From Methanobacterium formicicum DSM 3637 (GTDB lineage: Archaea; Methanobacteriota; Methanobacteria; Methanobacteriales; Methanobacteriaceae), in assembly GCF_000302455.1 (NCBI RefSeq), contig NZ_AMPO01000001.1, positions 353,014 through 385,013 of the forward strand: 32,000 bases of DNA, given 5' to 3'. The notes under the pieces are model-generated. The model was given only the letters and a program-made list of their open reading frames with translations, had not been told where the DNA came from and ran no database searches. A program made the position numbers and the translations under genes. Of the stretch, positions 12,060-13,273 are shown piece by piece. The stretch's first letter is position 1. Each line of letters starts with the position of its first letter.

Positions 12060-12848
12060 ATGGCAGAAGTAATATCTATACTCAATCAGAAGGGTGGTTG
12101 CGGTAAAACCACCACTGCGGTAAACCTTTCAGCGGCATTAGCACTTTTAGGGAAAAAAGTTCTGGTAATTGACATGGACCCTCAGGCCAATGCCACCACT
12201 GCATTTGGGGTGGAGAAAAACGAGGAAAATTCAGTTTACAGGGTTTTAACTGGTGAACAAACCGTAGGGGAGGCAATTGTTTCCACTGAAATTTCCCAAT
12301 TGGACCTTCTTCCCAGTCATATCTCACTCAGCGGGGCTGAAATAGAGCTCAGTAAAGATATTGGATTCCCATTCATATTAAAAGAATCCATGGATGGTCT
12401 TCTGGATGATTATGATTATGTTCTGCTGGATGTGCCTCCTTCTCTTGGTATTCTAACCATAAATGCCCTGGTAGCTGCAGATAGTGTTATCATACCTATC
12501 CAGGCCGAATTTTATGCCCTGGAGGGAATGGCTGATCTTTTAGATGCCATGAAACTGGTTGAAAGTCGTCTAAACAGTCCTTCGCCAATAAAGGGAATAT
12601 TAATCACCCTCTATGATTCTCGCACTCGACTGGGTAGGGATGTTTACCAGAATGTAAAACAGTACTTCGGTGATACTGAATACATTTTTAAAACCACTAT
12701 CCCTCGGAATGTTAAACTGGCCGAAGCCCCCAGCCATGGGAAGCCCTGTATTATTTATGATGATGAATGTATAGGAACTGAAGCCTACAATGACCTTGCC
12801 AAGGAATTTTTATCACTAAATGAATCTGATGGGGAGGGCAATAAATGA
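12060..12848 (+). CDS. parA: ParA/Soj-type partition ATPase (deviant Walker A)
   Basis: Deviant Walker A NQKGGCGKTTTAVNL, followed by VLVIDMDPQANAT, LLDVPPSLG and TIPRNVKLAEAPSHGKP. By eye it is collinear with bacterial chromosomal Soj. There is no N-terminal HTH extension. GGAGA RBS upstream. Confidence 0.9.
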   Translation: MAEVISILNQKGGCGKTTTAVNLSAALALLGKKVLVIDMDPQANATTAFGVEKNEENSVYRVLTGEQTVGEAIVSTEISQLDLLPSHISLSGAEIELSKDIGFPFILKESMDGLLDDYDYVLLDVPPSLGILTINALVAADSVIIPIQAEFYALEGMADLLDAMKLVESRLNSPSPIKGILITLYDSRTRLGRDVYQNVKQYFGDTEYIFKTTIPRNVKLAEAPSHGKPCIIYDDECIGTEAYNDLAKEFLSLNESDGEGNK

Positions 12849-13273
12849 CTGCTAAAAAAGGGGAGAGTGCACTTGGAAGAGGCTTAGATGCCCTTATTCG
12901 GAAAGAAAAGCCTAAAAATGAGGATAAACTGAAAGAGGGTAAGAGTGAAAAAATAGCACCTGTAAAGAAGAAAACTCCTGAAAAAACAGTTGCCAGAAAT
13001 TCTTCAAAGGTTAAAAGCCCTCAAAAAACCAAAAAACAACCCAGAAAGGCCAAGGAAGATCCGGATAGAGTCATCATTGATGGAGTGGTGTTGGATGTGC
13101 GTAAAAACCCTCGTATATCCCTATGGTCAGCCAGATCCGCGGCCGTTTTAAGATTTTTAAAGAATACTAAACCTGCATTCAGTATAAGTAAAGAAGCATC
13201 TGCCCTTATTGAAGAGGCAGTGCAACAGAAATATCCTGAGATCTGGGAAATGTTTGATAACGAAGATTTTTAG
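12845..13273 (+). CDS. Small basic ParA-partner candidate: ParB-like N-terminal peptide, Lys-rich linker and a putative ribbon-helix-helix C-terminus
   Basis: Its ATG overlaps the parA stop (ATGA at 12845-12848). Residues 9-17, LGRGLDALI, match the ParB/Spo0J N-terminal motif. No ParB/Srx box or HTH was seen. The C-terminal pattern PRISLWS-ARSAAVLRFLKNT-SISKEASALIEEAVQQ looks like strand-helix-helix. Confidence 0.7.
   Translation: MTAKKGESALGRGLDALIRKEKPKNEDKLKEGKSEKIAPVKKKTPEKTVARNSSKVKSPQKTKKQPRKAKEDPDRVIIDGVVLDVRKNPRISLWSARSAAVLRFLKNTKPAFSISKEASALIEEAVQQKYPEIWEMFDNEDF

Follow-up and report, generated by a model that had tools for sequence, protein, structure and literature searches.

A Methanobacteriaceae form of archaeal SegAB, probably a ParABS-like machine with a ribbon-helix-helix protein in the place of ParB

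The segA-segB operon and its two products

The DNA analysed here (the window) is a stretch of 32,000 nt from Methanobacterium formicicum DSM 3637, contig NZ_AMPO01000001.1, and all coordinates count from its start. It carries two overlapping genes, segA (parA) and segB, which are discussed here as a methanogen version of the archaeal SegAB system, together with arrays of a short repeat on both sides of the operon (Table 1). The stop codon of segA and the start codon of segB overlap in the sequence ATGA (12845-12848, 4 bp), GGAGG is found 7-8 nt 5' of the segB ATG, and both open reading frames (ORFs) have a Shine-Dalgarno-like GGAG ahead of them. A preliminary description of this DNA had reported an ATPase of 262 aa and an ORF of 142 aa joined by ATGA, and the coordinates of both ORFs are exactly as it gave them.

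Table 1. Features of the segAB locus and related sites in the window
Feature	Position	Strand	Basis
Upstream array, 7-bp-phased TTATAA(C/G), candidate SegB centromere/operator (segS-like)	11937-11978	.	13-mer search; exact TTATAA at 11937, 11944, 11965, 11972
segA/parA, 262-aa Soj-type deviant Walker A ATPase	12060-12848	+	PF13614 AAA_31 6e-65; PDB matches
Deviant Walker A NQKGGCGKTT, signature Lys11 and Lys16, unusual Cys14	12084-12113	+	translation
segB, 142-aa centromere-binding adaptor (predicted)	12845-13273	+	ORF reading, 543 homologs, parA directly 5'
LGRGLDALI, residues 10-18, ParB-type ParA-binding/ATPase-activating motif (predicted)	12872-12898	+	motif search, M. xanthus ParB match
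Disordered Lys/Pro/Ser/Glu-rich linker, residues 20-72, species-variable length and sequence	12902-13060	+	AlphaFold2, alignment
SegB-type ribbon-helix-helix domain, residues 73-138	13061-13258	+	phmmer to Sso SegB, AlphaFold2
PRISLWS, predicted DNA-reading strand	13109-13129	+	alignment to Sso SegB
Downstream array, mixed orientation, imperfect palindrome then T-run; candidate second SegB site	13270-13352	.	13-mer search; hairpin-capable
Third pair of heptad arrays, candidate site	23836-23862 and 23928-23947	.	13-mer search; 10.5 kb from segB

Comparison of the window ATPase with proteins of the PDB returned ParA from Myxococcus xanthus (8RAY, 5e-65), Soj from Thermus thermophilus (1WCV, 2e-59), and Soj from Helicobacter pylori (6IUB, 3e-58), followed by weaker matches to SegA from Saccharolobus solfataricus (Sso; 7DUT, 9.5e-20), MinD (about 1e-19), and ParF (3e-11). 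The ATPase is 43-53% identical to bacterial ParA/Soj proteins, with 50-53% identity to Soj from Firmicutes and Bacteroidota in tblastn searches, and 30% identical to Saccharolobus SegA (220 aa). That it is collinear with bacterial Soj, as had been proposed, is borne out by the 8RAY match and by the tblastn identities, and by sequence comparison the window ATPase is a Soj-type ParA, nearer to solved Soj/ParA proteins than to MinD, ParF, or SegA. Residues D38, D40, and N44 align with D58, D60, and N64 from M. xanthus (the Asp/Asp/Asn of Motif 2). ParA proteins usually have Val where the Walker A sequence KGGCGKTT has Cys, and this sequence with Cys was found in 75 of the 77 ATPases of the Methanobacteriaceae family and also in the IMG/VR contig L095 (L numbers denote individual loci).

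The small ORF matched SegB from S. solfataricus in a single-sequence phmmer search of the PDB (7DUV_A, E=6.6e-7; 7DV2_A, E=3.6e-6; residues 54/80-136), and 16 of the 57 residues of its core are identical to Sso SegB. A family profile scored 1e-25 against the SegB structures, a value that is inflated because the profile contains two Sulfolobales sequences. AlphaFold2 predicts helices at residues 73-87, 96-106, 116-129, and 131-138, with the PRISLWS segment between them extended and, in this monomer, unpaired. Foldseek with the full-length model of the window SegB was uninformative. A natural member of the family with two SegB-like domains per chain, P0238, was modelled with a predicted local distance difference test score (pLDDT) of 93.7 and a predicted TM-score (pTM) of 0.88; its only two strands, equivalent to PRISLWS, are paired as the sole sheet of the model, and one half of it superposes on 7DUV/7DV2 with a TM-score of 0.70 at 2.6 A and 33% identity. 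Judged from the homology and from this model, the C-terminus of the small protein is a ribbon-helix-helix (RHH) dimer module of the SegB type. The RHH DNA-binding fold proposed in the preliminary description was thereby recovered, since the PDB search hit a crystallised RHH protein and the tandem relative models as an intramolecular RHH pair.

In Sso SegB a β-strand reads DNA through K52 and W56 in the segment DPKIGVWS, the protein forms higher-order complexes on DNA, and its unstructured residues 1-21 are needed for the approximately 1000-fold stimulation of the SegA ATPase with DNA present (PMC8682754). The corresponding segment of the window protein reads NPRISLWS, and the base-contacting residues K52 and K75 are replaced by R90 and S113; the equivalent of K52 is Arg in euryarchaea (PMC8682754). 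When compared with the published SegB signature, K/R-D/N-P-K/R-I-G/T-V/L-W-S-Y/P-P/E, residues 87-97 of the window protein (K-N-P-R-I-S-L-W-S-A-R) fit at 8 of 11 positions, with S in place of G/T and A-R in place of Y/P-P/E, and Methanobacteriales sequences have been counted as SegB members despite this signature (PMC12139799). Between the N-terminus and the RHH domain lies the Lys/Pro-rich linker of about 55 residues noticed earlier, which was placed at residues 20-72 and is disordered in AlphaFold2. It contains 18 Lys among 53 residues and has a net charge of +12; for most of residues 26-61 pLDDT is below 50, and the alignment is unconserved along the linker. The shortest members of the SegB family have 110 aa and the longest 245 aa.

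Scans of the small ORF against Pfam and NCBIfam gave no match at E<=1, neither to ParB/Srx (PF02195) nor to a helix-turn-helix (HTH) domain, in agreement with the earlier statement that a ParB/Srx CTPase box and an HTH are missing. A degenerate ParB was considered as an explanation of the small ORF and rejected, as both domains that define ParB were looked for and are absent; because of this absence the small protein is not a ParB. The preliminary description, which had been headed as a partner that keeps only the ParB N-terminal peptide, was therefore right about the peptide, and its implication of a degraded ParB did not hold, as nothing else in the protein is derived from ParB. It had also named SegAB as a mere conceptual analog. 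Here a correction is needed, since the small protein is by its sequence, its fold, and its place in the operon a true homolog of SegB, and Methanobacteriales orthologs had already been listed. Published SegB orthologs from Euryarchaeota, including Methanobacteriales, are always encoded 3' of segA, and euryarchaeal SegA is about 40 residues longer (PMC5120986, PMC12284271, PMC12139799). Because of the SegB homology and these published orthologs, the locus belongs to a system already known, not to one of a new kind.

The ParB-type tail and the pocket of the ATPase

The ParA-binding motif of M. xanthus ParB comprises residues 11-19, in which L11, L15, L18, and I19 are each required for binding of ParA, and R13 is required to stimulate the ATPase, this place being taken by Lys in about half of the ParB proteins of bacteria (PMC12462528). 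In the window SegB, whose N-terminus reads MTAKKGESALGRGLDALIR, residues L10, R12, L14, L17, and I18 equal L11, R13, L15, L18, and I19 of M. xanthus ParB in identity and in spacing. The ParB-type N-terminal peptide had been recognised in the preliminary description and is upheld by this match, although it had been numbered as residues 9-17 and is found one residue further on. With the SegB homology established for the rest of the protein, the picture of a chimeric adaptor, a ParB-type peptide on an RHH module, was likewise supported.

In order to judge the motif, a relaxed pattern, [LIVM]G[RK]G[LIVM]xx[LIVMF][LIVMF], was searched in six frames. It has a single match in the whole window and 85 matches in the 1.3 million six-frame residues of all fetched loci, 84 of which lie at N-termini of SegB-like proteins or annotated bacterial ParB proteins, and for this reason LGRGLDALI is not a chance match. 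Within Methanobacteriaceae, the tail [AG]LG[RKML]GL[DE][AS]LI is invariant in 80 loci. Its central residue is Lys in 43 cases, Arg in 29, Met in 7, and Leu in 2, so that Lys or Arg is present in 72 of 81 tails, which mirrors the approximately 50:50 split of Lys and Arg in bacterial ParB.

For direct comparison, ParB sequences were taken from annotated genes beside those Soj genes of a plasmid collection that are most similar to the window ATPase, several of these records being evidently chromosomal fragments (rsmG-noc-soj-spo0J). Their N-termini read MATQRRNALGRGLDALLS (Bacteroides), MENKSKRSNRLGRGLSALIP (Clostridioides difficile), MATRNGKGLGRGLDAVFS (Latilactobacillus), and VAKGLGRGINVFF (Bacillus thuringiensis), and annotated ParB tails have the forms NALGRGLDALL, RLGRGLSALI, and GLGRGLDAVF. 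A phmmer search of the PDB with the 30-aa N-terminus gave only a chance match, the query being too short and most ParB constructs being devoid of the tail, and a full-text literature search for LGRGL together with ParB found no paper. In Sulfolobales, the SegB tail is MSELDFLLKKRK, as read from three proteins returned by a homolog search seeded with a fragment of Sso SegB, and MAFFT sets it on the GLDALIRK half of the motif. The Sulfolobales tail might thus be a shortened version from which the L-G-R part is missing, a suggestion that involves few residues and is not a demonstration.

On the side of the ATPase, a hydrophobic pocket of M. xanthus ParA that binds the ParB motif was defined by mutagenesis and nuclear magnetic resonance (PMC12462528). 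When the window ATPase was aligned to 8RAY, the pocket positions read V116I, L150L, L152I, L155I, L187L, and L192L (M. xanthus residue first), and the two invariant residues that flank the arginine read Y81Y and E117E. As far as can be judged by alignment, the ParB-peptide pocket residues of M. xanthus ParA are retained in the window ATPase. The same profile (Y81, E117, and the hydrophobic pocket positions) was detected in six other Methanobacteriaceae ATPases and in the ATPases that partner ParB-tailed SegB-like proteins at L089 (an Archaeoglobales contig) and L090 (an archaeal metagenome-assembled genome, MAG), the latter having Pro at the V116 position. All of these ATPases share about 50% identity with bacterial Soj. 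Saccharolobus SegA is devoid of Y81, L152, L187, and L192, the alignment of SegA being less certain around positions 81 and 117.

How the tail came to resemble that of ParB can be explained in two ways: the 5' end of a parB gene may have been fused to a segB-type RHH gene, or the tail may have converged on the same ParA pocket. Convergence has a chance only a little short of even. The approximately nine shared residues are too few for a test of homology, activating peptides arose repeatedly in the ParA/MinD family (MinE, PomX, ParG; PMC12462528), and the alignment of the Sulfolobales tail MSELDFLLKK with the GLDALIRK half of the motif suggests gradual divergence in one family over a recent fusion. 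It is opposed by the agreement of 9 of 10 residues with some bacterial ParB tails (here SALGRGLDALI, and NALGRGLDALL in Bacteroides), by a partner ATPase that is itself about 50% identical to bacterial Soj, and by an operon architecture, in which the parA stop overlaps the adaptor start, that is the same as that of soj-spo0J. Because only nine residues are involved, descent of the peptide from ParB and convergence are inseparable.

Heptad arrays beside the operon

The 13-mer TTATAAGTTATAA, with up to two mismatches allowed, has 31 matches in the window as compared with 2.4 expected, and these are confined to three clusters (11937-11977, 13270-13352, and 23836-23940), a weaker outlier at 13404 going with the downstream cluster. 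In an unbiased approach, 8-mers were counted in the 200 bp 5' of parA and the 200 bp 3' of segB from 77 Methanobacteriaceae loci. The 8-mers ATAAGTTA and ACTTATAA and their relatives were present in 73 of 77 upstream flanks and 69 of 77 downstream flanks and were enriched 50-130 times over the rest of the loci, and TTATAA hexamers were about 15 times denser in the flanks. The distance between TTATAA hexamers peaks sharply at 7 bp (227 cases), followed by 14, 21, and 28 bp, and in 209 of the 227 pairs at the 7-bp distance C or G fills the spacer position. Relative to the parA ATG, the upstream array occupies -54 to -21 in most species and is further out, at -123 to -83, in the window; the downstream array begins about 15 bp past the segB stop codon. 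The third array of the window adjoins the 5' side of an operon containing a 2x[4Fe-4S] ferredoxin gene (23597-23830, -) and hisB (IGPD), and it occupies the same intergenic position in three other loci (L003, L092, L093).

The TTATAA(C/G) arrays are probably the centromere to which SegB binds, as judged from their distribution and from characterised RHH proteins. Alternatively, they might be sites of another factor or elements of promoters or terminators, with the true SegB site elsewhere, which is regarded as unlikely. TTATAA is similar to a TATA box, the downstream array makes a stable hairpin with T-rich DNA behind it, and the sites characterised in Sulfolobus, a GAAGAGTCTAG palindrome and AGNGTNN repeats, look different. 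Nevertheless, segAB is flanked by the arrays on either side in about 90% of the 77 loci even though the surrounding intergenic DNA has diverged, their 7-bp phasing is the geometry of RHH binders such as omega and is also seen in the triple 7-bp repeat of S. acidocaldarius segS, and other lineages carry phased repeats of their own by the operon, namely ACTTCAA (L089), AGTAATT (L090), and GTTATAA (L094). The different look of the Sulfolobus sites would be matched by the protein, as replacement of K52 and K75 by R90 and S113 is consistent with a changed DNA specificity.

A further explanation is that SegB acts mainly as an RHH repressor with the ATPase as a co-regulator, or that the ATPase positions other cargo or regulates division or replication, as in the case of Soj and DnaA from Bacillus subtilis. 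It could account for the overlap of the upstream array with the likely promoter or leader in most loci (-54 to -21) and for the third array directly 5' of the ferredoxin-hisB operon; RHH proteins that bind centromeres, omega for example, also act as global repressors, and Soj has roles outside segregation in Bacillus. However, no promoter is expected between the convergent genes where the downstream array is located, the ParB-type tail and the conserved pocket point to an ATPase cycle of the partition type, and Sulfolobus homologs show segregation phenotypes (PMC5120986, PMC12284271). Regulation and partition do not exclude each other, and as an explanation in its own right the repressor is considered quite improbable.

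Some further observations concern the arrays, which are retained here as candidate centromeres. The segment 13301-13353 of the window would fold in single-stranded form as a hairpin of -12.7 kcal/mol (z=-6.9) with a T-run behind it, and the downstream array might in addition terminate transcription of the convergent genes. In L091 (Methanobacterium ferruginis), three genes (hypothetical, amine-oxidase-like, and GtrA-like; 10460-12969) are inserted between segB and the radical-SAM gene that follows it, and heptad arrays are found on both sides of this insertion, as if the downstream array had been split. In L090, the 10-mer AGTAATTA[CG]T is present in only two places (4116-4256 and 5090-5235), 5' of parA and inside tandem repeats that code for the linker (TNESEVISKK) of the SegB-like protein, and at this single locus the linker-coding repeats may double as binding sites.

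Distribution, related systems and proposed function

Searches with the small ORF returned 543 close homologs. When one genome per species was scanned, relatives were present in 203 genomes, and 80 loci were fetched, nearly all of which are labelled Methanobacteriaceae (Methanobacterium, Methanobrevibacter, and Ca. Methanovirga); a few MAG records are labelled Methanobacteriota or Euryarchaeota and one Methanomicrobiales. The best homolog, from a Methanobacteriaceae MAG, is 95% identical. It had been suggested to examine whether the small ORF always follows the Soj-like gene in Methanobacteriales, and parA is directly 5' of segB in all 80 genome loci in which upstream DNA is present. The overlapping arrangement is seen in 76 of 80 loci, the rest being explained by missing upstream DNA or a mis-called start, and also in L089, L090, L094, and L095. 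The order thrS, M24 peptidase gene, parA-segB, convergent radical-SAM/helix-hairpin-helix gene, cobB, mtd, and hisB is kept at SegB identities of 51-69%. From this synteny it is concluded that segAB resides on the methanogen chromosome and is inherited vertically; the methanogen chromosome context noticed earlier agrees with it and with the presence in the window of the Mtd gene and of a gene for an Fae-Hps fusion, which is typical of methanogens. One MAG, Methanobacteriaceae 8_bin.87, has two segAB loci (L005 and L027) with SegB proteins 95% and 55% identical to that of the window, which points to a second copy of the locus or else to a bin of mixed content.

Vertical inheritance has to be weighed against the idea that the pair is a partition cassette (type Ib-like ParA/RHH) from a plasmid or provirus, domesticated or resident, and not a chromosome-segregation system; the repeats would then be the centromere or terminal repeats of that element. 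This explanation is judged very improbable. It could draw on the flanking arrays, which pair as an inverted repeat of 44 nt that is 80% complementary (I1), and on the pairs at L089, L090, L094, and L095, which sit among hypothetical, restriction-modification, and virus-like genes. However, the core of the heptad is a palindrome and should produce direct as well as inverted matches (direct match D3, 82%), and the third array lies outside the cassette. Also, the same housekeeping neighbourhood (thrS, pepM24, radical SAM, cobB, mtd, hisB) persists down to 51% SegB identity, and the 203 species-level genomes with relatives stand against one match only among 2.9 million viral contigs. The idea that the flanking arrays are terminal inverted repeats of such a cassette was therefore rejected, in view of the palindromic core, the conserved synteny, and the third array outside the operon. 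The single viral match, L095, encodes at 953-2468 a ParA with KGGCGKTT and a SegB-like protein of 258 aa (tail MGKGMDALF, long linker built from SGVMT/SEVMS-type repeats), which suggests that a SegAB-like module also travels on archaeal mobile elements.

The chromosomal segAB locus belongs to a larger family. A hidden Markov model profile of the family, searched against 1.84 billion representative proteins at E<=1e-3, retrieved 309 representative clusters. Among the best 149 of these, 71 have a ParB-like start (such as RLGRGLDALIP, RLGRGLEALLS, or ALGKGVDALFS), 11 have the Sulfolobales tail MSELDFLL, and the remainder are fragments, proteins with mis-called starts, or tail-less proteins of a type with two RHH domains. 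Named members beyond Methanobacteriaceae are MAG proteins from Archaeoglobales/Archaeoglobaceae. The tail-less subfamily, of 160-210 aa, has two SegB-like RHH domains per chain (P0226, P0238, P0248, P0252, and others), and P0133, P0134, and P0140 combine a ParB-like tail with two RHH domains. It is tentatively proposed, at slightly less than even confidence, that the ParB motif is the general and probably ancestral tail of this large archaeal family of SegB-like RHH proteins, and that the Sulfolobales tail was truncated and co-evolved with a divergent SegA. According to a published proposal, SegB originated in Sulfolobaceae and reached Methanobacteriales by transfer (PMC12139799); the breadth of the family sits uneasily with such a transfer, an observation that is offered as a lead. 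If the tail should be ancestral, the proposed transfer from Sulfolobaceae to Euryarchaeota would be reversed, and euryarchaeal SegAB would be a "ParABS without the CTPase clamp" in which a heptad-reading RHH protein replaces ParB.

Sulfolobales SegAB (SSO0034/SSO0035, and that of S. acidocaldarius) resembles the window system in having a homologous RHH protein with an overlapping ParA-like gene 5', a disordered N-terminal tail, a variable purine-rich linker, and repeat DNA sites by the operon, the segS site of S. acidocaldarius being also phased by 7 bp (a triple repeat). It differs in its SegA, which has 220 aa, is 30% identical, and is without the four pocket residues, whereas the window ATPase has 262 aa and is about 50% identical to Soj. 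The tail is MSELDFLLKKRK in Sulfolobales and the full L-G-R/K-G-L-D-A-L-I here, the sites are an upstream GAAGAGTCTAG-type palindrome or AGNGTNN repeats there and TTATAA(C/G) arrays on both sides here, and the base contacts are K52 and K75 there and R90 and S113 here. Unlike in Sulfolobales, no segC-like neighbour accompanies the window locus, and the host is a rod-shaped methanogen and not a coccoid crenarchaeon with ESCRT division.

With bacterial ParABS (Soj/Spo0J; M. xanthus), the window system shares the ATPase subfamily (8RAY, 5e-65), the residues and spacing of the tail, the pocket, and the overlapping gene order. The adaptor, in contrast, contains no ParB/Srx CTPase, HTH, or ParB dimerisation domain, and therefore a CTP-gated clamp or sliding would not be possible; DNA is predicted to be read by an RHH β-ribbon on short phased repeats instead of at a 16-bp parS. 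Type Ib adaptors (ParG from TP228 and omega from pSM19035) are alike in that a small RHH dimer activates a ParA-type ATPase with a flexible N-terminal tail, and omega binds arrays of 7-bp heptads, direct and inverted, in promoter regions, serving as centromere binder and repressor. However, the ATPase of the window is of the larger chromosomal Soj type and not ParF or delta, its adaptor has a ParB-type tail and not one of the ParG Arg19 type, and the locus is chromosomal and vertically conserved. The likeness is architectural only, as PDB searches with the window protein and with the family profile gave no ParG or omega chain at E<=10. The AspA-ParB-ParA system of the Sulfolobus plasmid pNOB8 also joins a bacterial-type ParA and a ParB-like N-terminal adaptor with a separate site-specific DNA binder (PMC8682754), but it has three components, with a true ParB N-domain and the HTH protein AspA, whereas the window system has two and only a nine-residue motif that is ParB-like.

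Taken together, the pair is considered with good confidence to be the Methanobacteriaceae form of archaeal SegAB, which most likely operates in the manner of ParABS with an RHH protein doing the work of ParB. It should function as a hybrid of Sulfolobus SegB at the DNA end and bacterial ParB at the ATPase end. DNA binding, ATPase stimulation, and a role in segregation are attributed to the window pair by analogy with work on Sulfolobus and bacteria. Each heptad of an array would take up one SegB dimer in a cooperative manner, giving a nucleoprotein partition complex, and SegB would also repress its own operon at arrays that overlap the promoter. Flexible basic linkers would present two N-terminal motifs per SegB dimer, and each motif is expected to become a short helix on entering the hydrophobic pocket that an ATP-bound, nucleoid-bound ParA sandwich dimer has at its interface, with its central Arg or Lys beside Tyr60/Glu96. 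Motif and non-specific DNA together might then cause hydrolysis of ATP and release of ParA, and the chromosome region marked by SegB would move up the ParA gradient.

Several points weigh against this proposal. The dimer of Sulfolobus SegA is atypical and not of the sandwich kind, and S. acidocaldarius SegAB localises in a way unlike a ParABS relay (PMC8682754, PMC12139799). This atypical behaviour of Sulfolobus SegA includes bipolar structures, and transfer of the bacterial mechanism is therefore not guaranteed, though the window ATPase is much closer to Soj. At the arginine site, the "functionally conserved" residues E82 and D110 of M. xanthus are R61 and S89 in the window ATPase. Met or Leu occupies the central Arg/Lys position in 9 of 81 tails, so that a basic finger is not strictly required or upstream Lys/Arg residues substitute for it. 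Regarding the DNA sites, the TTATAA core resembles AT-rich archaeal promoter sequence, and the downstream array has the further capacity to form a hairpin ahead of a T-run.

SegB has been described as unrelated to ParB (PMC12284271), and the N-terminal regions of euryarchaeal SegB proteins as of unknown function (PMC12139799). The ParB motif, the Soj-type pocket, and the TTATAA heptad site were not mentioned in the SegAB literature searched, which did not include the founding paper from 2012, so that a prior mention is possible. What is new relative to the searched literature is the ParB-type tail, the pocket-bearing Soj-type ATPase, and the flanking heptad arrays, membership in SegAB being already known. 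SegAB is the main candidate for an archaeal chromosome-segregation machine, and experiments so far were all performed with Sulfolobales. A Soj-type pocket and an RHH protein with a ParB motif turn the question of how SegB activates SegA into a concrete mechanism that can be tested by mutation, and the proposed reading predicts cross-activation by bacterial ParB peptides. It also nominates the TTATAA(C/G) arrays as a centromere sequence for methanogens, including gut Methanobrevibacter. More generally, partition adaptors would consist of parts, an ATPase-activating peptide and a DNA-binding module, that are exchangeable across domains of life, which is no surprise in principle because activating peptides are already known as modular.

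GC skew, tRNA, and Rfam scans of the window gave no information on an origin or on RNAs. The radical-SAM gene convergent to segB (13638-14762, -), which encodes C-terminal helix-hairpin-helix DNA-binding motifs, keeps its position in every related locus examined. Among the window genes at 24680-28147 (-), 21502-22893 (-), and 28356-29576 (-) a hybrid sensor kinase of 1155 aa is encoded (receiver, multiple PAS, GAF, HisKA_2, and HATPase domains). Two neighbouring ORFs of the window occupy the site at which two TMEM175-family genes are located in the syntenic L001, a correspondence by position only.

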